In this document: positions 2,960 to 25,547 of the stretch, in pieces
Position numbering within the stretch: the first letter of the stretch is position 1
How the letters are laid out: each line of letters begins with the position of its first letter
Source of the DNA: a virus
Taxonomy: Duplodnaviria > Caudoviricetes
Virus record (IMG/VR): IMGVR_UViG_3300037067_018912
Span: 256,001 to 320,000 of that record
DNA length: 64,000 bases
Strand: one strand, 5' to 3'
Program-made: the position numbers and the translations under genes
Notes under the pieces: model-generated
Told to the model about the DNA's origin: nothing
Databases searched by the model: none
Seen by the model: only the letters and a program-made list of their open reading frames with translations

Positions 2960-3059
2960 TGATTGTGGTTGCGGTAAACCTGTCAGGAATTCTGATAAAA
3001 AGAACGGCAAAGGAAAACCTCCGGTGAAAAAGACTGTGACTAAAAGAAAATAAGCATAT

Positions 3060-3659: not shown

Positions 3660-3730
3660 TCACATAAACACAACAAAATGAAGAAAATTACTGATGCCTT
3701 GTAGGTTGCTCACATGCTGCCACAAGGAAA

Positions 3731-4024
3731 ATGTACAAAAATTTAGTTAAATCGACCACCAATCGTGGTGAGTTTAATCGTGCTTATAAAGCATATCTTG
3801 AATCAACAAAAGCAGAAATTCATTGCTCCCGCTGCCCATATCATCGTAATGAAAACGATGACAGAAAATATTACGGCGGATATCGCAGGATGAACGGTCA
3901 TTTATCAATAAGTTTCCCTAATTGGAAACTCGTTTCGAAAAACCGCAAGCAATGGATGAAAAAACCAATGAAAATTATTACAGAGGTCAAACACGACCGT
4001 GAATACACTGAAATTAAATTTTAG
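3731..4024 (+). CDS. basic hypothetical protein with CxxCxxH motif
   Basis: 97-aa ORF, HCSRCPYH. Confidence 0.7.
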   Translation: MYKNLVKSTTNRGEFNRAYKAYLESTKAEIHCSRCPYHRNENDDRKYYGGYRRMNGHLSISFPNWKLVSKNRKQWMKKPMKIITEVKHDREYTEIKF

Positions 4025-4038
4025 TGTATTCCTTTTAT

Positions 4039-4111
4039 GCCGCTATCGCTCCAAAGGTTAGGACGATTCTCTCATAAGGAATAGATCATGGTTCGACTCC
4101 ATGTAGCGGTA
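4039..4111 (+). tRNA. tRNA with CAT anticodon (Met or lysidine-modified Ile2)
   Basis: ATTCT-CT CAT AA-GGAAT; GCCGCTA/TAGCGGT acceptor stem. Confidence 0.85.
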
Positions 4112-4114
4112 CAA

Positions 4115-8540: not shown

Positions 8541-8582
8541 TGTAACTTTTATTTGTTAGTCTCGTATTTATTCGTACATTTG
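8541..8582 (+). promoter_or_regulatory. stacked promoters (ECF-type TGTAAC-N16-CGTA, GTATTTAT, Bacteroidota -7 TACATTTG)
   Basis: TGTAAC 8541, CGTA 8563, TACATTTG 8575. Confidence 0.7.
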
Positions 8583-8619
8583 CATCACGATTTTTGATAA
8601 ACTAAGTAAAAACAATATA

Positions 8620-8712
8620 ATGTTTGCATTCGGAACATATTATTACACCAAGAAATCTTATAAAAAGCAATTTATAGGAATCGGGAATAATATGTCCACA
8701 TGCGAAAGATAA
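8620..8712 (+). CDS. Tyr/Lys-rich leader peptide MFAFGTYYYTKKSYKKQFIGIGNNMSTCER (attenuator 1)
   Basis: 30-aa ORF between promoter and terminator; TAT TAT TAC ACC AAG AAA TCT TAT AAA AAG; upstream of Lys/Tyr tRNAs. Confidence 0.85.
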   Translation: MFAFGTYYYTKKSYKKQFIGIGNNMSTCER

Positions 8713-8737
8713 GCAATGATCTTTGCATTATGCACTG

Positions 8738-8767
8738 AAAACCCGGTTCGAAAGACCGGGTTTTTTT
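8738..8767 (+). terminator. intrinsic terminator of attenuator 1
   Basis: AAAACCCGGT-TCGAAAG-ACCGGGTTTTTTT; 5' arm can pair with GAATCGGG at 8678-8685. Confidence 0.9.
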
Positions 8768-8777
8768 GTTTTATGTT

Positions 8778-8849
8778 GATCTCGTAGCAAAGTTGGTTTA
8801 GCCTCGGACTTTTAATCCGAAGACGTGGGTTCGAGTCCCACCGGGATCA
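8778..8849 (+). tRNA. tRNA-Lys(TTT)
   Basis: TCGGA-CT TTT AA-TCCGA cloverleaf. Confidence 0.92.
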
Positions 8850-8919
8850 CAGCGATGGAGACATTTGGAACTTTTGTAGAACAGCCGCACAAATGCGTGG
8901 AAGCGTAAAAGTTCAATAA

Positions 8920-8998
8920 GGAAGTGTTGGGTGCTGGAATACCCAAGAGTCTGTAAAACTCCCGCTTCGGCATGTAGGTTCGAGTCCTACCACTTCCA
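8920..8998 (+). tRNA. tRNA-Tyr(GTA)
   Basis: GAGT-CT GTA AA-ACTC, variable arm, GGAAGTG/CACTTCC acceptor. Confidence 0.9.
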
Positions 8999-9073
8999 CT
9001 AACTGAAACCGTGTGAACCGGAGTTTCTGTTAACCCGTTCAATTAGAACGGGAAGAGTTTAAAAGGTTCATTT

Positions 9074-9157
9074 GTATCCGTAGCAAAGAGGCTATGCACC
9101 AGACTTTTAATCTGGGGACAGTATTGTCCTACGTGGGTTCGAATCCCACCGGGTACA
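9074..9157 (+). tRNA. tRNA-Lys(TTT) with long variable arm
   Basis: CCAGA-CT TTT AA-TCTGG then GGACA-GTAT-TGTCC arm. Confidence 0.88.
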
Positions 9158-9222
9158 CTGATAAAACTTAACGTGGTCGGAAGTTTATTATTCCGAAAGG
9201 CAACTGTTTCAAGATCACAAAT

Positions 9223-9304
9223 GCAGTCGTGGCAGAATGGCCATGCTCCTGACTCTTAATCAGGGTACGAAAGTACGATGGGGGTTCGAATCCCTTCGGC
9301 TGCA
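9223..9304 (+). tRNA. tRNA-Lys(CTT) with long variable arm
   Basis: CCTGA-CT CTT AA-TCAGG then GTAC-GAAA-GTAC arm. Confidence 0.88.
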
Positions 9305-9310
9305 CAAAAT

Positions 9311-9382
9311 GTCTTCGTGGCTCAACGGTAGAGTAACTGACTCTTAATCAGTGGGTTGTGGGTTCGAATCCCACCGGGGACA
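9311..9382 (+). tRNA. tRNA-Lys(CTT)
   Basis: ACTGA-CT CTT AA-TCAGT canonical cloverleaf. Confidence 0.93.
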
Positions 9383-9388
9383 CAAAAT

Positions 9389-9502
9389 GGGAGTGTGGTC
9401 GAGCGGTAGACGCAGGCTGAATTGGTACACTGTTTGGGTTTACAACCTTAACAAACAGAGGAAGCCTGATAAGTACGCAGGTTCGAATCCTGCCACCCTC
9501 CA
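9389..9502 (+). ncRNA. tRNA-like RNA with expanded anticodon arm
   Basis: D and T arms intact; CAGGCT/AGCCTG stem encloses ~44 nt including a CTGTTTG/CAAACAG hairpin. Confidence 0.7.
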
Positions 9503-9507
9503 CAAAA

Positions 9508-9753
9508 ATGATGAGTATGGAAACTTTAAAACAAATCGTAAGCGGAACATTGGCCAAAATGAGCCATATGTGTAACGGAAAAGTGTATTACACGATCGAT
9601 ACACAGGAACATTCGTATCAACTTGAAATTGATTGCCTGGACAAGGAATGGAAGGATGTTTATATCCTCCCGAAGTATAAGGCGATCACTCTGATGCGTT
9701 GGATCAGAAAAGGCATTGAGAAGGACAACGGCACGTTCATAATGTTGAAATAA
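9508..9753 (+). CDS. hypothetical protein
   Basis: 81-aa ORF between tRNAs. Confidence 0.7.
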   Translation: MMSMETLKQIVSGTLAKMSHMCNGKVYYTIDTQEHSYQLEIDCLDKEWKDVYILPKYKAITLMRWIRKGIEKDNGTFIMLK

Positions 9754-9759
9754 TGTGTT

Positions 9760-9848
9760 GGGAGTGCGGTAACGGTGGTGGTGTTGCAATTGACTGTAAA
9801 TCAATTCCCATAGGGTAAACATTGGGGGTTCGAATCCCTCCACTCTCA
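9760..9848 (+). tRNA. tRNA-Tyr(GTA)
   Basis: ATTGA-CT GTA AA-TCAAT, long variable arm. Confidence 0.9.
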
Positions 9849-9851
9849 CAC

Positions 9852-9881
9852 AAAACCCGGTTCGAAAGACCGGGTTTTTTT
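9852..9881 (+). terminator. terminator closing the Lys/Tyr array (same sequence as 8738-8767)
   Basis: AAAACCCGGTTCGAAAGACCGGGTTTTTTT. Confidence 0.9.
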
Positions 9882-9998
9882 ATTTTAAGTATTTATATTC
9901 CCAATTATATTTATTCAGACTAAATAAAAATAACCTTGCATTTCTGTTCTGAATTAGTTATATTTGGTAAAATAACTTTATTTAATGCTTACGTATAC

Positions 9999-10871
9999 AT
10001 GGCAAAAAAAGTAAAAAAGGTGACGACTACAACCACCGTTACCGAAGAAATCATCGAAGGATCATCAAACGAAAAAACACAAATTGTTTGTATCCTTGAC
10101 CGTTCAGGCTCAATGAGTGAAGGCGGAATAATCTATGAAGCAATCAACGGCTTCAACCGTTTCTTGAAAGAACAAAAAGAATTGAAAGACCAGGCTACAA
10201 TTACTGTTGCCTTGTTCGACGATCGTTATGAACTCCTTTATGATGACATCGACATCAAAAAAGTTCCAGAAATAACTTATGCCACTTGGACTCCAAGGGG
10301 AACTACCGCCTTATTGGATGCTATTGGCAAAACTGTTAACACTGTCAAGTCAAACCACATCCGTTTAGGGAGTGAGAAACCTGCGAAAGTTCTCGTTTGC
10401 ATCGTAACGGACGGTAAAGAGAATGCCAGTCATGAGTACACCCGTGAAGGCATCAGAAGTCTCATTCGGGAACGTGAAAGGGATAATTGGAACTTCATCT
10501 ACCTGGCAGCAAACCAAGATGCGTTTGCCGTTGGACAATCGTTCGGTATCAGTCATCATAACAACTACACCTATGCTGCATCAGGTGCGGGTATGATGGA
10601 TATGAGTAGTGTATTGGGAAATGCCACGACTTCATACAGAAGTATGGTCTCCAGTTCTGCAGATTTTCAAACAAGATCGAAATCCCTTCTCAAAGACGAG
10701 GGCGATGCAAAGGACAATCTCACAGACAACATTAATGTTGTTGGTACAATCAAAGGTAATGACACGTATTTCAGCACCGGAACTGTGGTTTACAGCGGAG
10801 GAACAACTACAAATAGCACGGGTGTTCCGGGTGATGTCAATTTCACCGCTCAAAACGTCACAGTGACATAA
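9999..10871 (+). CDS. von Willebrand factor A domain protein
   Basis: ILDRSGSMS MIDAS, GTTALLDAIG, IVTDGKENAS. Confidence 0.88.
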   Translation: MAKKVKKVTTTTTVTEEIIEGSSNEKTQIVCILDRSGSMSEGGIIYEAINGFNRFLKEQKELKDQATITVALFDDRYELLYDDIDIKKVPEITYATWTPRGTTALLDAIGKTVNTVKSNHIRLGSEKPAKVLVCIVTDGKENASHEYTREGIRSLIRERERDNWNFIYLAANQDAFAVGQSFGISHHNNYTYAASGAGMMDMSSVLGNATTSYRSMVSSSADFQTRSKSLLKDEGDAKDNLTDNINVVGTIKGNDTYFSTGTVVYSGGTTTNSTGVPGDVNFTAQNVTVT

Positions 10872-11064
10872 TAATTTCCGTTTTTTGTAATTGTTTATTG
10901 GTTTTTTGGGGGTGCTTTCAGCACCCTCTTTTTTTGTTAAAATTTTGTAAATTAAATACATAAATTTTTAATAAAATCTTCAAGTATATTTTTAAAAACC
11001 CTTGTATTTATGGTTGCCTTTGGGTAAATTCGTTTACATAATTTTATAAAAAATTATTATTTCT

Positions 11065-13689
11065 ATGTTAGAGAAATCCCAACAAAAATTCCAAGAATCG
11101 GAAATTCTTAAATCAACCTTAAAATACTTCAATGGTGACGAACTCGCAGCAGATGTTTGGATGAAGAAGTATTGTCTGAAAGACGAAAAAGATTACTATG
11201 AACTCAATCCTGACCATATGCATTGGAGGATTGCAAAAGAACTTGCAAGGATTGAAGCAAAATATCCGAATCCTTTAACTGTGGAGGAGATATATGAGAC
11301 ATTAAAAGGGTTCAAGAAACTCGTCCCACAAGGCTCGCCAATGAGTGGCATTGGAAACGACTTCCAAGTCGTCTCCTTGTCCAACTGTTTTGTAATTGGT
11401 AATCAAAAGGATAGTGATTCCTACGGGGGAATCATGAAACTTGATCAAGAAGTCGTTCAATTGGAAAAAAGACGTGGAGGGGTCGGCATGGACTTGTCGT
11501 TCGTGCGTCCGGCTGGAACTCCAGTAAAGAACTCTGCAATAACATCGACAGGAGTTGTGCCATTCATGGAAAGATACTCCAATTCAACAAAAGAAGTCGC
11601 ACAGGATGGCCGTAGAGGTGCTCTCATGGAAAGCATCTCAATCAAGCATCCTGATGCAGAGAAATTCATTGATGCCAAACTCACCCAAGGTAAGGTCACG
11701 GGGGCGAACATCTCAGTAAAAATCACAGATGATTTCATGGAGGCAGTCATCAAAGACGATGAATTTTGGCAAACATATCCGATTGATATGAAAATCCCGT
11801 TAGGTGCAAATTACGACGAGTTGATTACCAATGCCAAAGAAAATGAACTTGTGAAACTATCCGGTGTAGGTTATCTAAAAAAAATAAATGCCCGAAAACT
11901 TTGGAACAAAATTATATTCAATGCATGGAAATCCGCTGAACCCGGAATATTGTTTTGGGATGTCATATTAAGAGAAAGCATTCCCGATTGTTATGCTGAT
12001 TTGGGTTATAGGACTACATCCACGAACCCTTGCGGCGAAATCCCGCTTTGCCCGGATGACAGTTGCCGTTTATTGTGTATAAATCTTTATGGTTATGTTT
12101 CTGCACCATTTACCGAGTTCCCGATATTCGAATGGGAGAAGTTTGAACATGACGTCCAAATTGCACAACGCCTGATGGACGATATCATCGATCTTGAAGC
12201 GGAAAAGATAGATGCAATCCTTAACAAGATCAAGGCAGACCCGGAGGATGAGTTTATCAAACTCTACGAAACAAAGATGTGGGAAAGGATTAAGAAAAAA
12301 ACCCTTGAAGGTCGTAGGACTGGTCTCGGCGTTACCGCCGAAGGTGATATGATAGCCGCAATGGGATTGAGATATGGTACTGAGGAAGCCACCGCATTTA
12401 GTGAAAGGGTTCATAAGATACTGAAACTGAACGCATATCAGTCATCGGTTCAAATGGCAAAAGAACGTGGGGCATTTCCTATATGGGATGCTGAACGTGA
12501 AAAACATAATCCATTTATTGAAAGAATCGCCAAAGAAGACTTCGATCTTTGGGACGAAATGATGAAATACGGTCGCAGGAACATCGCCCTTCTGACAGTA
12601 GCACCAACCGGAACAGCCAGTCTAATGACACAGACAACTTCCGGTATCGAACCCGTATTTCTCCCCGTGTACAAGCGCAGGCGCAAAGTTAACCCCCAAG
12701 AGAAAGACGCAAGGATCGATTTCGTTGATGAAGAAGGTCTTGCGTGGCAAGAATACCTTGTCTTTCATCACAAATTCGAAACGTGGCTTGAAGTCAATGG
12801 TTATAACGTAACTGTTGTAAAGACTATGACTTCCGAACAAGTGGAAGAGATTGTAAAGAAGTCACCGTATTACAAAGCGACGAGCAATGATGTCGATTGG
12901 GTGAAAAAGGTCGAAATGCAAGGCCGTGTCCAAAAGCATGTTGATCATAGCATTTCTGTGACGGTCAACCTGCCAAAAGATGTTACCGAGGAAATCGTCG
13001 CCAAGGTTTATGAAACCGGATGGAAAAGCGGATGCAAGGGAATAACCGTCTACCGTGACGGTTCAAGAAGTGGGGTACTTCTTTCTGAAACTGAAAAGAA
13101 AGAAGAGAAATTACATGACACCCACGCTCCCAAGCGTCCAAAACGTTTGAAAGCCGAAATCCATCGTTTCCAAAACAGCCTTGAGAAATGGATTGCCGTC
13201 GTTGGTATCAAAGACGGAAGACCGTATGAAATCTTTACCGGAAAATTCGAGAATGGTTTAAGTAACTTGCCAAGTAATGTGGTAGAATGCGAGGTGGTGA
13301 AGAACATTATTGAATCAGAATCCGCCGAGGGCGATAAAACAAGAGTGAAACGTTACGATATTGAATACATCGATAACGACGGTGAGAAACACACCCATCC
13401 CGGATTGAACCATGCATTCAACCCCGAATTTTGGAACTACGCCAAACTCATCTCCGGTGTTATGAGGCATGGAATGCCTGTGGTAAAATTATACGAATTA
13501 ATCGTGTCGTTGAATTTCAAAGAAGATTATATCAACACATGGAAGAACGGCGTTGCCCGTGTCGTAAAAAGATACATCAAGGATGGTGAAAGGATTAGGG
13601 GGAGATGCCCCGAATGTGGTGGTGAAAACCTTGAATTCGTGGAAGGATGTTTGACATGTAAGAGTTGTGGAAATTCAAAATGTGGATAA
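11065..13689 (+). CDS. nrdJ: adenosylcobalamin-dependent (class II) ribonucleotide reductase
   Basis: SLSNCFV, TNPCGEIPL, VAPTGT, GCKGITVYRDGSR, C-terminal Zn ribbon; no NrdB partner seen. Confidence 0.93.
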   Translation: MLEKSQQKFQESEILKSTLKYFNGDELAADVWMKKYCLKDEKDYYELNPDHMHWRIAKELARIEAKYPNPLTVEEIYETLKGFKKLVPQGSPMSGIGNDFQVVSLSNCFVIGNQKDSDSYGGIMKLDQEVVQLEKRRGGVGMDLSFVRPAGTPVKNSAITSTGVVPFMERYSNSTKEVAQDGRRGALMESISIKHPDAEKFIDAKLTQGKVTGANISVKITDDFMEAVIKDDEFWQTYPIDMKIPLGANYDELITNAKENELVKLSGVGYLKKINARKLWNKIIFNAWKSAEPGILFWDVILRESIPDCYADLGYRTTSTNPCGEIPLCPDDSCRLLCINLYGYVSAPFTEFPIFEWEKFEHDVQIAQRLMDDIIDLEAEKIDAILNKIKADPEDEFIKLYETKMWERIKKKTLEGRRTGLGVTAEGDMIAAMGLRYGTEEATAFSERVHKILKLNAYQSSVQMAKERGAFPIWDAEREKHNPFIERIAKEDFDLWDEMMKYGRRNIALLTVAPTGTASLMTQTTSGIEPVFLPVYKRRRKVNPQEKDARIDFVDEEGLAWQEYLVFHHKFETWLEVNGYNVTVVKTMTSEQVEEIVKKSPYYKATSNDVDWVKKVEMQGRVQKHVDHSISVTVNLPKDVTEEIVAKVYETGWKSGCKGITVYRDGSRSGVLLSETEKKEEKLHDTHAPKRPKRLKAEIHRFQNSLEKWIAVVGIKDGRPYEIFTGKFENGLSNLPSNVVECEVVKNIIESESAEGDKTRVKRYDIEYIDNDGEKHTHPGLNHAFNPEFWNYAKLISGVMRHGMPVVKLYELIVSLNFKEDYINTWKNGVARVVKRYIKDGERIRGRCPECGGENLEFVEGCLTCKSCGNSKCG

Positions 13690-13690
13690 C

Positions 13691-13879
13691 ATGGAAAATC
13701 CAAGAAGAAGCCTAAAAGGATTATTGAAAAACGGCGATAATTTTAAAGCCAGAAAAATCAATCTCGACGATCCTGAAGTCAAAATAATGCTTGAAGCAGT
13801 GAAAGAAGAGAAAAAGAAATGCCTTGAAAGAAAGAAAGTTAATTGGGCAAAACTGAATAATACTTACGTTAACATTTAA
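13691..13879 (+). CDS. hypothetical protein
   Basis: 62-aa ORF directly after nrdJ. Confidence 0.6.
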   Translation: MENPRRSLKGLLKNGDNFKARKINLDDPEVKIMLEAVKEEKKKCLERKKVNWAKLNNTYVNI

Positions 13880-14016
13880 AAATCCGAGTATTTATCAAAA
13901 AGTTCTTTGATATCTTAATTGGAATTTCTATATTTGTTTGGAATATTGTAACTATTTCATCTCACATGCGTAATAGAATTGAAACACAAAAATAACTGTA
14001 TATAAAACTTAACTGT

Positions 14017-16278: not shown

Positions 16279-16363
16279 TTCACTGACGTTCAATATACTA
16301 AAACCCCGAATAAAAAAATTCGGGGTTTTTTTAAAAATATATTGAAAAATTTTTGCAAATTAG

Positions 16364-16394
16364 TGTAACTGTTTTATCTTTGCAACGTATTTAA
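16364..16394 (+). promoter_or_regulatory. stacked promoters (ECF-type, Bacteroidota -7 TATCTTTG, GTATTTA)
   Basis: TGTAAC 16364, TATCTTTG 16376, CGTATTTA 16386. Confidence 0.7.
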
Positions 16395-16436
16395 GAGAAA
16401 CGATATTTTTCGTAAAATAATAACTTTAAATTTTCA

Positions 16437-16562
16437 ATGAAAACTTTAGCCACATATAGGCCAACGTCCGGATCGACAGAAAGTCGCAACGGGAATGCTA
16501 TATCCTGCTCATTTATTAATGACGGCAGAGGCATATACGGCATCGGGTTATTGTTTTCGTGA
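16437..16562 (+). CDS. codon-sampling leader peptide MKTLATYRPTSGSTESRNGNAISCSFINDGRGIYGIGLLFS (attenuator 2)
   Basis: 41-aa ORF; 29 of 41 residues are T/R/S/G/N/I/C/F, the specificities of the downstream tRNAs. Confidence 0.85.
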   Translation: MKTLATYRPTSGSTESRNGNAISCSFINDGRGIYGIGLLFS

Positions 16563-16589
16563 GAAAAAAAGGACAGTTAAAACTTAACG

Positions 16590-16619
16590 AAACCCGGTGT
16601 CAAAAGCACCGGGTTTTTT
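16590..16619 (+). terminator. intrinsic terminator of attenuator 2
   Basis: AAACCCGGTGT-CAAAA-GCACCGGGTTTTTT; 5' arm can pair with GGCATCGGGTT at 16539-16549. Confidence 0.9.
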
Positions 16620-16662
16620 GTTTTAGGGTTGTTGTGTATAGTTTTTTGGGTTCTTTTCATAC

Positions 16663-16733
16663 GTCGGGATAGTATAGTGGTAGTACGCTTGTGTGGTATT
16701 CAAGTGACACCAGTTCGAGTCTGGTTCTCGGCT
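16663..16733 (+). tRNA. tRNA-Thr(GGT), atypical anticodon arm
   Basis: CTTG-T-GT GGT AT-T-CAAG; acceptor and T arms intact. Confidence 0.7.
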
Positions 16734-16817
16734 CAACGAATATCAGTTGTGAAACTCATATTCATCGATTATAAGGTCACAACCTTATGATTGAGTTCTT
16801 TGACATGCTGGAATTTT

Positions 16818-16898
16818 GAAGGGTTGCCTGAGTGGTTGAAAGGGACAGTCTGCAAAACTGTTAGGAAACTCACGTGGGTTCAAATCCCACACCCTTCT
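16818..16898 (+). tRNA. tRNA-Cys(GCA), long variable region
   Basis: ACAGT-CT GCA AA-ACTGT, U73. Confidence 0.9.
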
Positions 16899-16960
16899 CA
16901 AAAGCGATATTTTGCGAAAAGCATTGTTTTTCGGTACTTATTGCAAAATATCGCTCTTAT

Positions 16961-17032
16961 GGACTGGTGGCTCAGTGGTAGAGCGTCTGGCTGTTAACCA
17001 GAGGGTCGGGGGTTCAAATCCCTCTCAGTCCG
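16961..17032 (+). tRNA. tRNA-Asn(GTT)
   Basis: TCTGG-CT GTT AA-CCAGA. Confidence 0.93.
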
Positions 17033-17037
17033 CAAAT

Positions 17038-17111
17038 TGTCTCGTAGTTCAGTTGGTTAGAGCACATCCCTGATAAGGATGAAGTCGTGAGTTCAACTCT
17101 CACCGAGACAA
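17038..17111 (+). tRNA. tRNA-Ile(GAT)
   Basis: CATCC-CT GAT AA-GGATG. Confidence 0.93.
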
Positions 17112-17187
17112 CAAACCGCCCCCAGCGGTATATAAAATTATGAATAAGCAATGCGCATTTAGTGCTGTTCATATACTGGGGACGCAT

Positions 17188-17262
17188 TGGGTGGTAGTTC
17201 AGTCCGGTTAGAACGCATCTCTGATAAGGATGAAGTCGAGGGTTCAAATCCCCCCCTCCCAA
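17188..17262 (+). tRNA. tRNA-Ile(GAT), second copy
   Basis: CATCT-CT GAT AA-GGATG. Confidence 0.88.
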
Positions 17263-17383
17263 CAAAAGGTTCGTAGTCCGAAAGCCTAACCAGCCGACGG
17301 GTGAAGTTTCCTTGGCGAAATTGATGTAAACAAGCACCTGTGGTGGGATTGCGATGTGCTGATAAAGTGACCGAAAACTTAAT

Positions 17384-17470
17384 GGAAGGTTGGCAGAGCG
17401 GTCGATTGCGCCTGTCTTGAAAACAGGTGTACATGCCAATGTACCGGGGGTTCGAATCCCTCACCTTCCG
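17384..17470 (+). tRNA. tRNA-Ser(TGA)
   Basis: CCTGT-CT TGA AA-ACAGG, long variable arm, G73. Confidence 0.93.
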
Positions 17471-17553
17471 CACTTGGCGTAACCACGGCACGAACCGTGA
17501 CTTCGGATTTGATCACCGATGAAGCATTTAATGTTGATGCAGTCATGATATTT

Positions 17554-17638
17554 GGAGAGTTGGCAGAATGGTCATTGCAACAGTCCCGAAAACTGTCGTC
17601 GTGAAAGCGGCGTGTAGGTTCGAATCCTATGCTCTCCG
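17554..17638 (+). tRNA. tRNA-Ser(CGA)
   Basis: ACAGT-CC CGA AA-ACTGT (C33), long variable arm. Confidence 0.88.
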
Positions 17639-17645
17639 CAAAATC

Positions 17646-17717
17646 GAGGAAGTAGCATTACATGGGTAGCGCAGGGGCGAAAACCCTGAGAGGTGGGTTC
17701 GATTCCTGCATTCCTCA
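17646..17717 (+). tRNA. atypical tRNA or tRNA-like RNA (GAA in loop GCGAAAA)
   Basis: CAGGG/CCCTG stem and T arm present; weak D arm, no U33. Confidence 0.55.
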
Positions 17718-17726
17718 CTCAAACAT

Positions 17727-17815
17727 GGAAGGTTGACAGAGCGGTCTATTGTAACAGCCTGGAAAGTTGTCGTCGTGAAAGCGACGCAGGGGTTCGAATC
17801 CCTTACCTTCCGCCA
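17727..17815 (+). tRNA. tRNA-Ser(GGA)
   Basis: ACAGC-CT GGA AA-GTTGT, encoded CCA. Confidence 0.92.
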
Positions 17816-17819
17816 AAAT

Positions 17820-17895
17820 TGACTTTAATATTGGAACAAAAAGGATGTAGTGTCATGACACATTCTTCGGGGAGGTTCAAATCCTTCAGAGTCAG
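17820..17895 (+). ncRNA. tRNA-like RNA without canonical D/anticodon arms
   Basis: TGACTTT/AGAGTCA acceptor, GGAGG-TTCAAAT-CCTTC T arm, AAGGATGT/ACATTCTT central stem. Confidence 0.55.
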
Positions 17896-18148
17896 CAAAC
17901 GGGTTGGACTGCAATCCGACCTGTTCTCACAGGATGCTGTTACAATCGTATCATTGCAGTGATGTGGTTGATGCAAAATGTGCGAGTCCCTGTATGCATA
18001 AGATGCTGTCCTAATGTTCAGTAGCAATTCCTCTTTCGCACACATGGTTGGCAACATGAAATGTGTGAGTACGGTGTTGTTCAGAGACGTTTATGTTGGT
18101 TGCAATGCCTCCGGGTTCGTGGTATAAGGCCACAACAGGGACAAATAT

Positions 18149-18220
18149 GGAGTGGTAACTCAGCGGTAGAGTGCCTCCCTGAAGAGGAGGTGGTCGGGGG
18201 TTCAAATCCCTCTCACTCCA
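18149..18220 (+). tRNA. tRNA-Phe(GAA)
   Basis: CCTCC-CT GAA GA-GGAGG. Confidence 0.92.
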
Positions 18221-18556
18221 CAAAAAAGGCAGGTGGACGGATCAAATCCTGTTCCCGCAGGACAAGATTGCCGCCTTGGTGCGGACGTTCACAACGGGAC
18301 TGCCTTATACAGGTCGGGCAACCAGCGGGGTTGTTCGGGTAACTTCCTCACAAGGAATCCTGTAAAAACATTGATAAACGGGGATACCCCGCTGCGAAAG
18401 CAGTGCCCCGCCCATAAAACAGGCTTCACGAAGACCTCCAACTTTAGGTTGGTGGGCGGTCAAACGCCCGGTGAAAGGTTCGTATATCAACAGGCTCACG
18501 GAGTCCTCCAACTTAAAATTGGTGAATCTCAATAATTCAGTAAAAAGTCCGTAAAT

Positions 18557-18628
18557 GCGAGTATAGCACAACGGCCAGTGCGTCAGATTTCCAATCTGAG
18601 GATGTCAGTTCGATCCTGATTACTCGCT
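18557..18628 (+). tRNA. tRNA-Gly(TCC)
   Basis: TCAGA-TT TCC AA-TCTGA, U73. Confidence 0.92.
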
Positions 18629-18635
18629 CAAACAT

Positions 18636-18715
18636 TCACGAATAACTCAGCGGTTAGAGTGCCTCGGCGGGCTTCGGCTACGAGGGAGTCGGGGGTTCAA
18701 ATCCCTCTTCGTGTA
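18636..18715 (+). ncRNA. tRNA-like RNA with 14-nt anticodon loop
   Basis: CCTCG-GCGGGCTTCGGCTA-CGAGG; D and T arms canonical. Confidence 0.7.
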
Positions 18716-18767
18716 CAAAAGGTCTGAGGGAGTCCTTTGAAGGTATAAACAACCTGTCCCTCTCCAC

Positions 18768-18840
18768 GGTGGTGTGGCGCAATGGTCAGCGCAGGACTCT
18801 TATAAGGTCAAGGTTGGGGGTTCAAGTCCCTTCACCACTA
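18768..18840 (+). tRNA. tRNA-Ile(TAT)
   Basis: GACT-CT TAT AA-GGTC. Confidence 0.88.
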
Positions 18841-18847
18841 CAAAAAT

Positions 18848-18932
18848 GTTTGGTTAGTCAAGTGGCCGACGACAGCAGGCTGTTAACCTGCCGAGAGAAA
18901 TCCCATCGTAGGTTCGAATCCTACATCAAACG
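18848..18932 (+). tRNA. tRNA-Asn(GTT) with long variable region
   Basis: GCAGG-CT GTT AA-CCTGC plus 16-nt variable region. Confidence 0.88.
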
Positions 18933-18978
18933 CAAATCATTTCCAAACCCTTATAGTATTTATGTGAAAATTAATGAT

Positions 18979-19230
18979 ATGAAGAAGGTTTGGGAAAGTC
19001 TCAAGTGGTTTTTCAGCAGATGGATGCTCGTGTTGGTTGTGCTTATTGTATTGGGGATAATCGCAACGTTCATAATAAAATTCACAACACATACAGAAGA
19101 ACCATACAAAATTCCATTGTTCATCATCGGTGGTTGGGGGGTATTTGTCGTTCTCTTCACTTGGGTGAGAGAGATTTATTGGAAAATTGCAGGTAAAGGT
19201 GATTATGCTAAAAAGGACGAAAAGAAATGA
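18979..19230 (+). CDS. small two-TM membrane protein
   Basis: Two hydrophobic stretches; GTATTTAT 23 nt upstream. Confidence 0.75.
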   Translation: MKKVWESLKWFFSRWMLVLVVLIVLGIIATFIIKFTTHTEEPYKIPLFIIGGWGVFVVLFTWVREIYWKIAGKGDYAKKDEKK

Positions 19231-19604
19231 ATATAATTTCGATTCTATTATTCTTTTTCGCCGGGGTTTGCAATGCCTGCATGGATGTATTAAGAACGAG
19301 ATATAACACTTCTACATTTCGTTTTTGGCGGAATCAGAATTGGGTGAACCCGGCATTATCATGGCCGAATAAATGGAAGCCAAAGTCGAAATTCGGTGAT
19401 CTTATTATGTCGACAGTCCTTGTATGGGTAACTGATTTTTGGCATATGTGTAAAATGTTGATGATTCTTTGTTTTACAATGGGAGCGATTTTTTATCAAC
19501 CAATTTTTGACTTTTCAAAATTTTGGTTGGATTTGTTGATTTTATATTTTATATTCACAGGAACATTTGAACTGTTTTTCAGCAAAGTGCTAATAAAGAA
19601 ATGA
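19227..19604 (+). CDS. membrane protein
   Basis: Hydrophobic, TDFWHMCK motif, overlaps previous stop. Confidence 0.75.
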   Translation: MNIISILLFFFAGVCNACMDVLRTRYNTSTFRFWRNQNWVNPALSWPNKWKPKSKFGDLIMSTVLVWVTDFWHMCKMLMILCFTMGAIFYQPIFDFSKFWLDLLILYFIFTGTFELFFSKVLIKK

Positions 19605-19632
19605 CAATCATGTAAAATAATAAAGGGACATA

Positions 19633-20544
19633 TTGATGATCAAGATTTTCAAAACTTTCGGCGGGTGCGAAAGCGCAACCAAATTGGAAAAGGGATGTTG
19701 GATAGATGTGATTCAACCTACACAAGACGAGATTGAAGAAATAATAAACGGTTTTAACCTGCCCCCCGATAGTATACAAGACATTCTTGACGCCGATGAA
19801 ATGCCCCGTCTTGAAATCGACGACACTTACACCTTGATCATCATGCGTATTCCGGTGGAGAATTCACAAAACGGAATACCTTATTACACAATACCTCTTG
19901 GAATTTTTGTGACGGAAGATTTCACAATCACGATTTGTAATCAGGACAATGAAATCATTCAACCGAAACAATTGAGTAGCACGGCGGACACATACAATTT
20001 TATTTTGAAATTTTTTGTCAGATCAGCGAGTGTTTTTTTGAAATACCTTAAACAAATCAATCAACAGACAAGTCAAATCGAAAAGGATTTGGAAGAATCA
20101 ATTAAGAACAGTGAATTGAAAAAACTGTTGAAGATGGAAAAATGCCTTGTGTACTTCATTACTGCAATAAAATCGAATGAAATCGTCCTTCACCGTTTAA
20201 AAAACTCGAAAAGGATCACGGGTGAAATCAATGAAGACCTTTATGAGGACGCATTGATTGAAAACAGGCAGGCACTTGAAATGGCGCAGATATATTCAGA
20301 CATCTTGAGCGGGATGATGGACGCATTTGCCTCGATCATTTCGAACAACCTAAATGTGATAATGAAGAAATTGACGCTCATTTCAATAATACTCATGATC
20401 CCGACCCTTATCGCAAGTATATTCGGAATGAACATTCCGAATTTCATGGAAGGTTCAAATTGGGCGTTGCCTTCAATAATAATATTATCCCTATCACTGT
20501 CTTTGATCAGTGTGAAACTGATGAGAAACAAGCAGTGGTTTTAA
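19633..20544 (+). CDS. corA: CorA-family Mg2+ transporter
   Basis: WIDVIQPT, LDADEMPRLE, NNLNVIMKKLT, FGMN signature, two C-terminal TMs. Confidence 0.92.
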   Translation: MMIKIFKTFGGCESATKLEKGCWIDVIQPTQDEIEEIINGFNLPPDSIQDILDADEMPRLEIDDTYTLIIMRIPVENSQNGIPYYTIPLGIFVTEDFTITICNQDNEIIQPKQLSSTADTYNFILKFFVRSASVFLKYLKQINQQTSQIEKDLEESIKNSELKKLLKMEKCLVYFITAIKSNEIVLHRLKNSKRITGEINEDLYEDALIENRQALEMAQIYSDILSGMMDAFASIISNNLNVIMKKLTLISIILMIPTLIASIFGMNIPNFMEGSNWALPSIIILSLSLSLISVKLMRNKQWF

Positions 20545-20548
20545 AAAT

Positions 20549-20632
20549 GCCGATATCGCATAGTTGGTCAATTGCGCCGCACTTGTAATGCGGAGAAGAA
20601 ATTCTTCGTGGGTTCGAATCCCGCTATCGGCT
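20549..20632 (+). tRNA. tRNA-Thr(TGT) with long variable arm
   Basis: CCGCA-CT TGT AA-TGCGG, AGAA-GAAA-TTCT arm. Confidence 0.9.
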
Positions 20633-20734
20633 CAAAAGTAGGTGAAAAAGCGAAAGGATAACCTTCGGTATCAGGAAAACCTTTCACGGGTGCGGGAATA
20701 GACCGACTTGAACCGCACCCCGCTTATTTAAGTT

Positions 20735-20806
20735 GCCGATATAGCACAGCGGTAGTGCACCTGTTTCGTAAACAGGGGGTCGCAGGTTCAAATCCCGCTA
20801 TCGGCT
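20735..20806 (+). tRNA. tRNA-Thr(CGT)
   Basis: CCTGT-TT CGT AA-ACAGG. Confidence 0.92.
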
Positions 20807-20846
20807 CAAATCCTTGCTATTCTCCCTAATTTTTCCTAATTTTAAT

Positions 20847-20918
20847 GCCTCTATAGTTCAAGGGACAGAACAGAAGTTTTCTAAACTTCCGATCATGGTT
20901 CGAGTCCATGTGGGGGTA
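20847..20918 (+). tRNA. tRNA-Arg(TCT)
   Basis: GAAGT-TT TCT AA-ACTTC, A20 in D loop. Confidence 0.9.
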
Positions 20919-20932
20919 CTAAATAAATTAAA

Positions 20933-21166
20933 ATGTATACAGTTATCTGCCCGAAATGCAAGAAGTCCTTCACTGTGTCGGGTGACACCGAATACGTTCT
21001 TTGTTGCGATGAGGTGATATTCATCCCATCTAATGGTCCTGAAATGAAAGGCATCACTTTCCAATGCATACAGGAGGGGTTAATGAGGGATGGACGCAAC
21101 GTCGACCGGATATTTCTTGGTGATCCAAATGAAAGTATTGCACCCGATCCATACGAAGGATTGTGA
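20933..21166 (+). CDS. small Cys-motif protein
   Basis: CPKC...LCC. Confidence 0.6.
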   Translation: MYTVICPKCKKSFTVSGDTEYVLCCDEVIFIPSNGPEMKGITFQCIQEGLMRDGRNVDRIFLGDPNESIAPDPYEGL

Positions 21167-21329
21167 TGCGTTTTACGGTAAAGAAAATGAACGGCAAGGT
21201 CGCCTTTATGAATGAAAACAAAAGGTGGGTCAAACTCAATGGTTACGCTTTCCTTGATGAATACGGCCATTGCATCATAATTGTTTATGGTGAAGCGAGA
21301 ATGAAAGATGTTGAAAAGTATTTAAGTAT

Positions 21330-21401
21330 GCCCCTGTAGTTCAATGGACAGAACGGAAGTTTCCTAAACTTTAAATTCGAGTTCGATTCTCGGTGGGGGT
21401 A
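21330..21401 (+). tRNA. tRNA-Arg(CCT)
   Basis: GAAGT-TT CCT AA-ACTTT. Confidence 0.9.
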
Positions 21402-21493
21402 CAAAAACAGACAAATATTATCCGTCAATATGCAAAAACGTATAATAACCGGATAATAAATATCCTTATATGTAAAAGCATATAATAACATTC

Positions 21494-21565
21494 GCTCCCG
21501 TAGTTCAACGGATAGAACGCAAGTTTCCGGAACTTGTGATGCAAGTTCGATTCTTGTCGGGAGTA
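21494..21565 (+). tRNA. tRNA-Arg(CCG)
   Basis: CAAGT-TT CCG GA-ACTTG. Confidence 0.92.
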
Positions 21566-21592
21566 CAAGGTATTTATGTGAAAAGTAAATCA

Positions 21593-22069
21593 ATGAACAA
21601 CACCAAATTGAATGAAGAGATTCTGACCGCATACCGGGGTGGTGGGGAAATGCCGAGTCAAAGAAGGCTTTGGTACTTTACAACAAACGTCAAATATGCA
21701 AATTGGTTCAAGAGATACGCTTCCCTTGGAAAAGGCAAATTGTTTAAAGCGGATATAAGCACGGACAACCTTCTCGATTTGAGGTTTGTGACAAAACAGT
21801 TGAATTATCTTGATCTTCATTACATTTTAAAAAACAATGGAATAAGACCACCAAAATTCGTAATTGAAAACATTGAAGCGGGTTATGGTGGATACAAAGG
21901 TAATCTTTGGGAGTTCTTGAAAGAAGACAATGAATTGTGGGACAACATCTCAGAGAAATACGACGGAGTTATTTTCACCGAGACGAATCCGGAAGCGAGA
22001 CATACGGGCAAGGCGGAGACTATAATAATTGATATGATCAAGCACCCGGTCGAATATGAAGAAGTATAA
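21593..22069 (+). CDS. putative ADP-ribosyltransferase-fold protein
   Basis: AYRGG...WYFTTNVKYA...YDGVIF pattern of ART-like phage domains; LNEEI N-terminus. Confidence 0.55.
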   Translation: MNNTKLNEEILTAYRGGGEMPSQRRLWYFTTNVKYANWFKRYASLGKGKLFKADISTDNLLDLRFVTKQLNYLDLHYILKNNGIRPPKFVIENIEAGYGGYKGNLWEFLKEDNELWDNISEKYDGVIFTETNPEARHTGKAETIIIDMIKHPVEYEEV

Positions 22070-22072
22070 TAT

Positions 22073-22146
22073 GCACCTGTAGTGTAACTGGACAACACGT
22101 CTGACTACGGATCAGGAGATTGAGGGTTCGAATCCTTTCAGGTGTA
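22073..22146 (+). tRNA. tRNA-Arg(ACG)
   Basis: TCTGA-CT ACG GA-TCAGG. Confidence 0.92.
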
Positions 22147-22256
22147 CTAAAACCATAAGCCTATAGTCCAATATTCGAGAGTAACTTCTCAGAAGGGCAC
22201 GGTGTACAACGGAATTCAGGTATGAAATCCTGATGGGAACAACTTATGGTTTAATT

Positions 22257-22329
22257 GCAGAAATGGCGCAATCGGTAGCGCATGGCCTTCCCAAGGCCAG
22301 GGTTGCGGGTTCGAGACCCGTTTTCTGCT
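22257..22329 (+). tRNA. tRNA-Gly(CCC)
   Basis: TGGCC-TT CCC AA-GGCCA. Confidence 0.92.
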
Positions 22330-22337
22330 CAAATTTT

Positions 22338-22412
22338 GCGGGAATAGCACAGTGGTAGTGCGTTTGCTTGCCAAGCAAAAGGTCGTGAGTTCAAGCCTCA
22401 TTTCCCGCTCCA
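22338..22412 (+). tRNA. tRNA-Gly(GCC)
   Basis: TTTGC-TT GCC AA-GCAAA, encoded CCA. Confidence 0.93.
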
Positions 22413-22413
22413 T

Positions 22414-22486
22414 GCGAGATTAGCACAGTTGGTTAGTGTATCGGCTTGCCATGCCGGGAACGTGGGTTCGAATCCCATATCTTGCT
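22414..22486 (+). tRNA. tRNA-Gly(GCC), second copy
   Basis: TCGGC-TT GCC AT-GCCGG. Confidence 0.88.
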
Positions 22487-22501
22487 CAAAATTATGTTGT
22501 T

Positions 22502-23215
22502 ATGTCATTTACTTTTACACTTAAATCAACAGGAGAAGAGATAACACTCCCAACACCAAGCGGTGGTCCGGTTGAAATTGACTCTTTACCTTCCGAACCA
22601 TTGGAAATGAAGTACAGGACGATCGTGGTATCTGACCTGCACATTTTCAGAGATGATTCGAAATACAAAGAGTGTTTTAAATTTTTGATATACAATCCCT
22701 CGGAGAAGATCATCCTGAACGGTGATATCTTCGATTTCCTGCACCTGCTCAAGCATTGGTCGAATTATAAAAAGTACAAATACGTCATGCGAGGGTTCAG
22801 GATATTCATGAAGGAGAGGGGGACAAAGGTGATCTTCCTCGTCGGCAATCACGACTATCATTATTACCTGTTGAAGATCATACAACCCTTCCTGGGGATC
22901 AAAATTAGAAAATTTTATACTTTCGAATCAATTGCCGGGAGGATTCATGCCACACACGGAGATTGGATACCCTACGTGTTAAAGATCAAAAGGTTCTTCA
23001 ATAAAACAATCAAGATATCCGGCAACGAGGATGATGATTACGTCCTCTACGGATTATTAAAGAAATACAATGTCCTCATTTGCGGACACACACATGAACC
23101 GCTGTACAGGATTTACAACAACCTCCTCTACATCAACACAGGCGATTGGGTGAGCGATAACATGGCCGCCGTGGAAGAATTCGACGGGAGTTGGCATTTG
23201 ATACAAACACAATAA
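22502..23215 (+). CDS. calcineurin-like metallophosphoesterase (LpxH-like)
   Basis: SDLH, NGDIFD, GNHD, THGD, CGHTH, NTGDW. Confidence 0.88.
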   Translation: MSFTFTLKSTGEEITLPTPSGGPVEIDSLPSEPLEMKYRTIVVSDLHIFRDDSKYKECFKFLIYNPSEKIILNGDIFDFLHLLKHWSNYKKYKYVMRGFRIFMKERGTKVIFLVGNHDYHYYLLKIIQPFLGIKIRKFYTFESIAGRIHATHGDWIPYVLKIKRFFNKTIKISGNEDDDYVLYGLLKKYNVLICGHTHEPLYRIYNNLLYINTGDWVSDNMAAVEEFDGSWHLIQTQ

Positions 23216-23222
23216 GAACGGT

Positions 23223-23537
23223 ATGAAAGGGATCATAAAATACAATACCAGGTTTTACAAAAAATCTGATAAACCCCTCAAAGAGGGTGATTTAGTTAAA
23301 CTTGAATGTAAAAGAGGTAGCGATTATTTCAAATACAATGGAATATATACCGTCAACAAATGGAACGAAATATTAGTTCCACTTAAAGAAGAAAACGGTA
23401 AAAAATATAATCTTTGTATTAAACTTGGATACAACGTTTTTAAACACGAGGAATACTCCAAATTGGTTGAGGTTCAAAGAAGGAAGTCCCTTCCAAAACC
23501 AGTGAAAGAAGAACAAATGTGTGGTTATACAATATGA
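23223..23537 (+). CDS. hypothetical protein
   Basis: 104-aa ORF. Confidence 0.65.
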   Translation: MKGIIKYNTRFYKKSDKPLKEGDLVKLECKRGSDYFKYNGIYTVNKWNEILVPLKEENGKKYNLCIKLGYNVFKHEEYSKLVEVQRRKSLPKPVKEEQMCGYTI

Positions 23538-23554
23538 TCTACCCCACCACACAA

Positions 23555-23813
23555 AAAACATAGCACAGAGGATTCATCGCTTGTTCAATAAAATCGTCTG
23601 TTCACTGTACGTGAACATTCAAAAATATTGAACAAGAGGAAGTTCGGGACACCACTGCTGAAGGCGGGAGATTCAACGCTAATCGGGATCGCCAATACCG
23701 CCGAGGGTGCAAGCCAAACAGTTTGAGACGGTGAGCAGGTCTTTGAGAACGGGTTGGTGCGTAGATAAATGATGATTAACAACAGAATCCCGGCTACGCT
23801 CATGCTATGTTTT
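23555..23813 (+). ncRNA. rnpB: RNase P RNA, short form with reduced specificity domain
   Basis: P1 AAACATAGCA/TGCTATGTTT; P3 CTTGTTCAATA/TATTGAACAAG; GAGGAAGTTCGGGA and AACAGAATCCCGGCTA (P4); TAGATAAATGA. Confidence 0.85.
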
Positions 23814-23969
23814 AAAATTTTTGACGAATGAATCGAAATCAGTGACGAATGGATGAGAATCATTAATGAAATTAATGTGTTTTAGTCATAATTTAGTCTT
23901 GAAACTCTTATCATTGTAACAAGTCCGGTTTTTTTTCGTATCTTTGTCAGGTAATCAAAACAATCTTGC

Positions 23970-24281
23970 ATGACAACATTATTGAAAAAGGATATCAAAC
24001 GGGAGACGTTCTCCGTAACAGACTTCAAAGGCAACGTAATGATCGTTACCCTAAAAGCGGGTGACATGATCGAGTTCAGAGCGAAAGGTAAGAGGATCAA
24101 GTACGAAGTACCGCTTGCCGCCTGTTTCAACTTGGCAATGATCTATTCCGCACACGAGCGATATAAGGAAAGGATTAAACGCTACGAGGATGGTCGCAAG
24201 GAAGGCCGGAAAATGAAAAGGCCAAGATTGATGCCAAGGATTTTCAATGAAAGATTGTATCAGGCATTGAAATTAATTTAA
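23970..24281 (+). CDS. hypothetical basic protein
   Basis: 103-aa ORF behind ECF-type promoter at 23915. Confidence 0.75.
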   Translation: MTTLLKKDIKRETFSVTDFKGNVMIVTLKAGDMIEFRAKGKRIKYEVPLAACFNLAMIYSAHERYKERIKRYEDGRKEGRKMKRPRLMPRIFNERLYQALKLI

Positions 24282-24439
24282 TATATTTGTGTTATGACAT
24301 CGGAGAGTAAGAGAAAGAAGGAGAAAAACAACACGCATAGTGCCAACGGGTTTGCGTTGAAAGAGCATGAATGTAAAATGAAAAGAGCATTGTATTTCAA
24401 TTCATCAAAAAGACAAAAACTCAAAAAAATCGACACCGA

Positions 24440-24808
24440 ATGAACCAAGAATTATGGGAAATATTAGTCCCCTCTTTCAGTAACGGTGGTGAAAAATTTC
24501 CGCTCGAACACCATAAGAAATGGGATGCCTTTGTCAAGAAGATCGCAAAAGGCGTGACGATCATGAAAACTGCCAAAGGTGAATGGGTTAGTCCGACCGG
24601 ACAGGTCTATATGGACAGAATGATCCCATGCCGAATCATTTGTAATGAAAGTCAAATGGATAAAATTATTGATTTCACTATTGAGCATTACGACCAAGAG
24701 GCTGTTCTTGCGTACAAGATTTCGGACAACGTGATCCTGCGCCACAGGAATGACAAGAGCATTAACGAGGACGTCCAAAGACTTTGGAATCAAAGAAACT
24801 ACAGATGA
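24440..24808 (+). CDS. hypothetical phage protein
   Basis: 122-aa ORF. Confidence 0.75.
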   Translation: MNQELWEILVPSFSNGGEKFPLEHHKKWDAFVKKIAKGVTIMKTAKGEWVSPTGQVYMDRMIPCRIICNESQMDKIIDFTIEHYDQEAVLAYKISDNVILRHRNDKSINEDVQRLWNQRNYR

Positions 24809-25002
24809 TACCAATTAAGGATATATTACCTTGTCCGTTTTGCGGAGCACAGGTGAAAGATCATCCGAATCCGATAACCAGTAAGGAATTTTTTATGGTA
24901 AGGCACATGAATGGTTGTTATTTCTTAAAAAATAATTCATCGGATTTCACCTTATTATTGAAAAACGATTATTATATAAAAAGTTGGAATAAAAGAATAT
25001 AA
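24805..25002 (+). CDS. zinc-ribbon protein (Lar-like N-terminus)
   Basis: LPCPFCG. Confidence 0.55.
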   Translation: MIPIKDILPCPFCGAQVKDHPNPITSKEFFMVRHMNGCYFLKNNSSDFTLLLKNDYYIKSWNKRI

Positions 25003-25004
25003 TC

Positions 25005-25196
25005 ATGGGAATGTTCGGTGAAATACATGCAGGAATGAATGCTGAACAATTGGAAAAAATCCTTTTGGAGGCAATAAAGGAAAATGACACCATCAAAGCA
25101 TTTGCAAAAAAACATCTGTATCAGTGGTATCTGTCCGAATGCAGTGAAGCGTTCCGTGAATCGAACCATGAAATAAAAGATGAATTTGAAGATTAA
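25005..25196 (+). CDS. hypothetical protein
   Basis: 63-aa ORF in operon. Confidence 0.6.
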   Translation: MGMFGEIHAGMNAEQLEKILLEAIKENDTIKAFAKKHLYQWYLSECSEAFRESNHEIKDEFED

Positions 25197-25413
25197 AAAC
25201 ATGGAAATTGAAACAGTAAACGATTTGGCAGAACAGATAGCCGACTGGATTGGCATCTATGGCGGCTGTAAATCAGATGGGGAAAGTGGTTGCACATACG
25301 ATAAATTCAAAAATCCTTGTTGCTGCCGCACAGGTTTTATCACCGCTATGGAGGAAAGGATAAGAGAAGCGGTGGAGAATGAAAAAAAACTCGAACAAGC
25401 GGGTTTGAAATAA
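25180..25413 (+). CDS. Cys-rich hypothetical protein
   Basis: 77-aa ORF, PCCCR. Confidence 0.6.
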   Translation: MNLKIKNMEIETVNDLAEQIADWIGIYGGCKSDGESGCTYDKFKNPCCCRTGFITAMEERIREAVENEKKLEQAGLK

Positions 25414-25418
25414 AATAA

Positions 25419-25507
25419 GGAAGGGTGGGTGAGTGGCTGAAACCACCTGTTTGCTAAACAGACGTGCGGGGCAACCTGCACCGGGGGTTCAAATCCCCCT
25501 CCTTCCG
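25419..25507 (+). tRNA. tRNA-Ser(GCT)
   Basis: CTGT-TT GCT AA-ACAG, long variable arm. Confidence 0.92.
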
Positions 25508-25547
25508 CAAAAAATACTCCCACATTTTGTTGAGTATTTATACGTAA

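Follow-up and report, generated by a model that had tools for sequence, protein, structure and literature searches.

Codon-matched leader ORFs as probable attenuators of four tRNA arrays in a large phage genome

The virus record IMGVR_UViG_3300037067_018912 (357,275 bp) is a complete phage genome with direct terminal repeats. We analyzed a 64,000-nucleotide stretch of it, hereafter the window (C1:256001-320000; the prefix C1 marks positions in the whole record, and positions without a prefix are those of the window). In and just upstream of the window lie four blocks of transfer RNA (tRNA) genes, each headed by a promoter, a short open reading frame (ORF) and a hairpin followed by a U-tract. 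The sequence evidence makes it very probable that these blocks are operons under ribosome-mediated transcription attenuation, exerting negative feedback on the tRNA pool. With similar confidence, every hallmark of ribosome-mediated attenuation that sequence can reveal appears to be present in the anatomy of these cassettes; their layout, codon matching, complementarity, covariation and geometry are all shown by the sequence analysis, and leader translation, stalling, read-through and feedback would follow from them.

An earlier note on this DNA had described two loci sharing this layout. Both are real, and the promoter, short ORF, hairpin with U-tract and tRNA array were located in each (cassette C, 8552-9849; cassette D, 16352-25508; Table 1), but the genome holds four in total, since cassettes A (C1:249120-250720) and B (starting at C1:253373), of the same layout, lie just ahead of the window. 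A short ORF stands between the promoter and the first tRNA in 4/4 cassettes. Cassettes A and B fall outside the stretch behind the original observation and so provided a held-out test within the same genome, which they passed: leader A is a 22-codon ORF rich in His, Gln and Pro ahead of Pro, His and Gln tRNAs (P=2.5e-5), and leader B (C1:253373-253465) is a 30-codon ORF rich in Leu, Val, Ala, Asp, Glu and Trp ahead of the tRNAs for those amino acids plus Met (P=1.2e-5). The claim that leader codons match the downstream anticodons likewise held at the two loci of the window. In leader D, which precedes 22 tRNAs for T, C, N, I, S, F, G and R (16663-25508), 29/40 codons are cognate, compared with an expected fraction of 0.438 (P=2e-4). 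Leader C has Tyr or Lys at 8/10 of codons 7-16, and 8/29 cognate codons overall against 0.122 expected (P=0.02). Cassette C is thus modestly significant on its own; the strength of the case comes from all four cassettes together with other phages.

No amino acid is shared between the four arrays, which together cover all 20, and in a 4x4 leader-array matrix the best match of each array is its own leader. Moreover, the sampling extends to isoacceptors. Together the four leaders carry codons for 41/43 downstream anticodon classes, with only GCG and CGG absent, whereas synonymous shuffles that keep the peptides cover 33.7 +/- 2.0 classes and reach 41 in 0/1000 cases. Coverage of anticodon classes is above chance in other phages too.

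The earlier note had made its proposal depend on codon agreement in related loci, and such agreement is what we found. For a first scan, viral contigs were searched for tRNA T-arms preceded by a terminator tail, without any requirement for an ORF, and regions of several large genomes were added. By a fixed rule, the leader was taken as the longest ATG ORF that had 15-70 codons and terminated 15-50 nt 5' of the stem, which gave 72 leaders in 79 units. In the first statistical set of 41 non-redundant units (<50% identity; four from this genome, 37 from other phage contigs), the cognate fraction was 0.486 against 0.278 expected (z=12.4), a value reached in 0/20000 permutations of arrays among leaders. 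Background codon frequencies were taken from this genome; the permutation test is independent of them. Frames +1 and +2 of the same DNA showed no cognate excess, and 95% of array amino acids were present in their own leader, compared with 69% by chance. With this genome excluded and arrays limited to at most 10 amino acids, z was 11.7 in 32 units. We then froze the rules and gathered a blind second set of 237 loci with two new search patterns. A leader was present in 123 of the 141 terminator-led arrays of at least three tRNAs, and 69 new non-redundant units had a cognate fraction of 0.512 against 0.307 (z=14.5). The rule chose the wrong ORF at three loci (L118, L128 and L129), and these were retained in the statistics, which is conservative. 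Because the scans select on the terminator pattern, these counts do not give prevalence.

Array partitions vary among phages (for example, Thr/Lys; Gln/Pro/Asp; Lys/Phe/Ser/Trp/His; Glu/Pro), and the leaders track them. Across families, leader peptides have composition rules in common but not sequence. Two units were found in Prevotella phage Lak-B1 (P=0.002 and 8e-5). Two cultured phages, Gundel_1 of Tenacibaculum and Panino of Maribacter, carry a single unit each, which precedes Tyr/Trp/Phe/Ser(/Asn) tRNAs (P between 0.002 and 0.095, according to where the array is bounded). The cultured phiCbK-like Brevundimonas phage Kabachok has two units, one with a GTG start, and the system is therefore not confined to Bacteroidota. 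Judged by sequence, it appears to occur in jumbo and small phages of Bacteroidota, in Lak megaphages and in an alphaproteobacterial phiCbK-like phage. No unit was found in the regions examined of T5, the crAss-like phages IAS and DAC15, or immuto_2-6A. A one-pattern search of 301 Bacteroidota genomes returned 15 matches, most of which were inspected and showed no leader-attenuator, and 12 GTDB matches included no leader-attenuator except on a phage contig binned in a metagenome-assembled genome (MAG; L110), a further locus, L101, being ambiguous.

Two doubtful loci from these searches are recorded separately. At L101 (862-1050), on a Gemmatimonadota MAG contig, a terminator and a 40-codon ORF precede a tRNA array. 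In the KVP40-like Vibrio phage phi-Grn1 (L156:4751-4925), a 37-codon ORF and a terminator precede the main array of 27 tRNAs, and the antiterminator is weak (-9.0).

Attenuation calls for a leader segment that competes for the terminator, and the leaders contain one. When each leader is paired with the 5' arm of its own terminator, the most stable duplex has a mean of -14.8 kcal/mol, compared with -9.9 for synonymous shuffles and -9.5 for the arms of other units (p<1e-10); the blind set gave -15.0 against -10.1. This duplex stops short of the end of the stop codon by a median of 17 nt. Within homologous families, a leader pairs better with its own arm than with those of its relatives in 22/27 cases (p=0.001), which indicates compensatory change. 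The hexamer ATCGGG, which the earlier note had singled out in both leaders as complementary to the terminator, does pair with the 5' arm of its own terminator at 8680 and 16542. The antiterminator of cassette C comprises 8 bp including one G-U (-13.8 kcal/mol; synonymous shuffles -7.1, p=0.03), and that of cassette D 11 bp including two G-U pairs (-19.0 kcal/mol; shuffles -11.4, p=0.015). ATCGGG itself, which encodes Ile-Gly, is not a system-wide motif, and cassettes A and B use other antiterminator sequences. Among homologues of leader D, the ATG start and a GGGTT core are invariant while the reading frame through the core varies, as would be expected of an RNA element that closes a coding sensor.

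We modeled the effect of ribosome position, assuming a 13-nt ribosome edge; the values that follow are predictions. Naked transcripts of all four cassettes form the terminator with a probability of 0.99-1.0, because the upstream leader ties up the antiterminator segment. A ribosome positioned at the control codons leads to capture of the terminator 5' arm with a probability near 1 before the 3' arm exists, and capture collapses once the A-site moves beyond codon 14 in leader A, 25 in B, 32 in D and 17 in C, where it drops to about 0.55. These switch points lie at, or adjoin, the end of the cognate block in all four leaders. Across 34 units, cognate codons peak at 0.82-0.88 two to four codons ahead of the modeled switch and fall to background about three codons beyond it; 57% of codons are cognate before the switch point and 27% after (p=1e-22). 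The attenuation reading of the earlier note thus finds support, in that the antiterminator, its position and the ribosome-dependent switch all appear to act as attenuation requires.

We propose that the host RNA polymerase would initiate at the sigma-A promoter; use of the host enzyme is suggested by the promoter motif and by our finding no RNA polymerase beta subunit in the 357,275-bp phage genome. A ribosome would then translate the leader, the first part of which has about one codon per tRNA species of the block. Where decoding is fast, the model predicts that the ribosome covers the antiterminator at the leader 3' end, so that the terminator forms and no tRNAs are made. Where a sampled aminoacyl-tRNA is scarce, the stalled ribosome would wait upstream, and the free segment would capture the terminator 5' arm before the 3' arm is made, permitting read-through. 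With zero translation, the leader is predicted to fold on itself and termination to be the default. Fresh tRNAs would restore decoding speed and thereby shut off the block, closing the feedback loop.

Several observations weigh against this proposal. At full equilibrium the terminator wins or ties at many stall positions in cassettes C (0.56-1.0) and D (0.3-1.0), and read-through there therefore needs kinetic trapping. A classical coding signal is weak: we counted 31 synonymous and 56 non-synonymous changes, a slight synonymous excess (p=0.018, with some pairs not true homologues), and a codon-position test gave p=0.13. With one codon per tRNA species, stalling is far weaker than at the tandem runs of hisL and trpL. 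Furthermore, promoter-like sites at 344, 3184, 23939 and 24282 stand upstream of distal tRNAs, which may be transcribed separately and bypass the switch. In particular, TAnnTTTG sites at 23939 and 24282 mean that the last tRNA-Ser (25419) may escape attenuator D. The leaders nonetheless contain the matching codons TTA, TTG, ATG and AGT.

The most skeptical account dispenses with attenuation: the hairpins would terminate transcription constitutively or serve as processing signals, with a phage antitermination factor letting polymerase past them, and the ORFs would be incidental or encode functional peptides. Such an account could draw on the exact repetition of terminator C at the end of array C and on the weak selection on peptide sequence. 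It leaves unexplained the array-specific composition confined to a single frame, the covarying antiterminators and the positional peak of cognate codons. Moreover, the peptides are alike in composition and not in sequence, and the D homologues keep the antiterminator while the frame shifts. We regard this account as very improbable.

If attenuation does operate, its trigger may be of three kinds, among which we divided our confidence. The purpose is most likely, in our view by slightly better than an even chance, the replacement of tRNA species lost during infection, whether through host tRNA nucleases or general decay; we favor loss of tRNA because sampling is at the level of isoacceptors and the product is itself tRNA. 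Defense nucleases are known to cause tRNA loss (PMC10264068, PMC12409363, PMC13096335), and cleavage by antiphage defenses such as PrrC is a plausible trigger that sequence cannot separate from starvation or general tRNA decay. It is possible, though we think it rather unlikely, that the same switch was selected to answer amino-acid starvation, signaled by uncharged tRNA, in nutrient-poor hosts. Classical attenuators sense uncharged tRNA, and the arrays are grouped by amino acid and cover all 20, not just the known nuclease targets. In Escherichia coli starvation also destabilizes tRNA (PMC5314770), which blurs the line between the two triggers. However, isoacceptors are sampled beyond what the peptides need, which is unnecessary for sensing amino acids, and the regulated genes are tRNAs and not biosynthetic or synthetase genes; an extra tRNA would supply no missing amino acid. 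The leaders could also be general sensors of speed or timing, such that all blocks open whenever translation is slowed or uncoupled during infection, and the codon match serves only later shut-off. Small phages in which a single leader samples nearly all amino acids for a single array (L009, L325 and L315) fit this idea, and a global slow-down is what a leader with one codon for each species would register best. Large phages, however, keep at least four separately wired blocks with disjoint sets, whose partitions vary and are tracked by their leaders, a design that would be pointless without block-specific control; we consider a general sensor improbable. Returning to loss of tRNA, we speculate that phages widely run a surveillance circuit, in which the leaders read the whole tRNA pool codon by codon and switch on only the block holding the missing species. 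Such an inducible, self-limiting answer to tRNA-destroying immunity seems to us about equally likely to be right or wrong.

The phage host is probably a member of the Bacteroidota, as indicated by the promoter consensus and by the relatives of the phage ribonucleotide reductase, which are nearest in uncultured huge phages (60%) and next in crAss-like Bacteroides phages (41%). The promoters of the cassettes fit the Bacteroidota consensus TTTG/TAnnTTTG (PMC6847099). TAnnTTTG occurs 5' of 36/61 leaders, compared with a background of 6.6%, and A is found at -3, -6 and -12 in about 61-66%. A sigma-70 promoter scan was at chance (50 matches, 45.7 expected), the Bacteroidota motif being the relevant one. 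In addition to a large terminase, the genome encodes an RtcB ligase and a CCA/poly(A) polymerase domain, both of which we count in favor of attenuation; the latter, at C1:103924-104310, lies inside a 1510-aa open frame. The genome contains 60 tRNA genes and one transfer-messenger RNA (tmRNA), and 59/61 of these fall within one 34-kb stretch of the + strand. Elsewhere, on the minus strand at C1:159493-159745, a lone tRNA-Met and a call with a TCA anticodon, with several tRNA-like neighbors, lie 3' of a TAnnTTTG site; no leader ORF was seen there.

Table 1. Features of cassettes B (tail), C and D in window coordinates
Feature	Position	Strand	Remarks
Array B, tail	1..4112	+	End of Trp, tmRNA, Leu TAA, Leu CAA, Met
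Promoter C, Bacteroidota sigma-A type	8552..8582	+	-33 TTTG at 8552; -7 TACATTTG (TAnnTTTG) at 8575-8582
Leader ORF C, 30 codons	8620..8712	+	Sensing stretch, codons 7-16: 4 Tyr, 4 Lys; AAA, AAG, TAT, TAC all present
Antiterminator segment C	8678..8685	+	Pairs with 8742-8749; in naked RNA tied up by leader 5' part
Intrinsic terminator C (attenuation site)	8742..8767	+	Predicted hairpin and U-tract
tRNA array C	8778..9849	+	Order Lys, Tyr, Lys, Lys, Lys, Tyr; Lys(TTT) x2, Lys(CTT) x2, Tyr(GTA) x2, plus one tRNA-like element
End-of-array terminator C	9856..9882	+	Same sequence as attenuation terminator C
Promoter D, Bacteroidota type	16352..16382	+	
Leader ORF D, 41 codons	16437..16562	+	Codons for 18/19 downstream anticodon classes; CGG alone absent
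Antiterminator segment D	16539..16549	+	11 bp with 16591-16601
Intrinsic terminator D (attenuation site)	16593..16619	+	Predicted
tRNA array D, core	16663..22487	+	Thr x3, Cys, Asn x2, Ile x3, Ser x3, Phe, Gly x4, Arg x4; protein genes interspersed
tRNA-Ser(GCT), last of array D	25419..25508	+	Codon AGT in leader D; promoter-like sites 23939, 24282 upstream

Other elements within and around the arrays deserve mention. The phage tmRNA (1755-2118) lies within array B, possibly co-regulated with its tRNAs, with a promoter-like site at 344 upstream. Array D encloses genes for a CorA-like Mg transporter (19633-20544) and a metallophosphoesterase (22436-23215), which may share its control. An identical hairpin of about 27 bp flanks the Lys/Tyr array on both sides (8738-8765 and 9852-9878) and may mark a duplication or recombination boundary. 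Between two tRNA-Asp genes, a tRNA-like gene (C1:253714-253788) has a perfect cloverleaf and a four-base loop call (gcgc). Inside the arrays, tRNA-like elements with altered anticodon arms occur at 9389-9504, 17646-17717, 17817-17898 and 18636-18715, one having an insert of about 40 nt and one an abnormal D arm; these may be decoys or pseudogenes. Two tRNA-like Rfam matches outside the arrays (37840-37907, with a shortened anticodon arm, and 38356-38436) were not called by ARAGORN. A tRNA with a CTA anticodon, of the amber suppressor type, lies at 26907-26981, yet long ORFs read normally in table 11.

The nearest known systems are the trpL, hisL and pheL leaders, the multivalent thrL and ilvGMEDA leaders, and Bacteroid-trp (RF01692) of Bacteroidetes, listed in PMC2864571. 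Like these amino-acid operon attenuators, the phage cassettes have a promoter, a leader ORF with control codons, mutually exclusive protector, antiterminator and terminator pairings, a U-tract and predicted default termination without translation. They differ in controlling tRNAs instead of biosynthetic enzymes, so that the product would directly cancel the signal, and in sampling up to 8 amino acids and 19 anticodon classes at about one codon each, with no tandem runs. The genes downstream are tRNAs, whereas an amino-acid operon attenuator in the strict sense governs biosynthesis, transport or synthetase genes. An Rfam search of the window matched only tRNA and tmRNA, with no T-box and no known leader family. 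The pheM attenuator of E. coli pheST, which encodes an aminoacyl-tRNA synthetase, likewise responds by attenuation to the supply of aminoacyl-tRNA and acts on a component of the translation machinery; unlike the phage cassettes, it serves one amino acid and a host protein operon, and sets charging capacity and not tRNA abundance. T-box riboswitches share a tRNA-responsive choice between terminator and antiterminator, but in them a specifier loop and a T-box bulge contact uncharged tRNA directly, without translation, whereas the phage units have a multi-codon ORF.

Phage T4 reportedly repairs tRNA after PrrC cleavage. Phage tRNAs rescue infection from retron Ec78 (PMC10264068), and SegB amplifies tRNA-Tyr against Septu (PMC13096335). 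As proposed here, phage tRNA supply in these cases offsets destroyed host tRNA and dose matters; they differ in relying on resistant tRNAs, repair or amplification, with no sensing element described. Why phages carry tRNAs has been an open question for more than 50 years (PMC10264068). A condition for tRNA use that is stated in codons would be direct evidence for on-demand replacement over constitutive codon compensation, and the question becomes testable with simple reporters and the cultured phages Gundel_1, Panino and Kabachok. The leaders would also offer ready-made in vivo sensors for tRNA-targeting defenses and a readout of which tRNAs are important to an uncultured phage. The earlier note knew of no attenuation described for phage tRNA genes, and we found none in the open literature, a coverage that leaves out most subscription journals. 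The switch itself is classical. What appears to be new, as far as that literature goes, is its use on tRNA operons, with many codons each sampled once and a product that cancels its own signal, which would extend attenuation to operons of non-coding RNA and to regulation of the tRNA pool in a closed loop.

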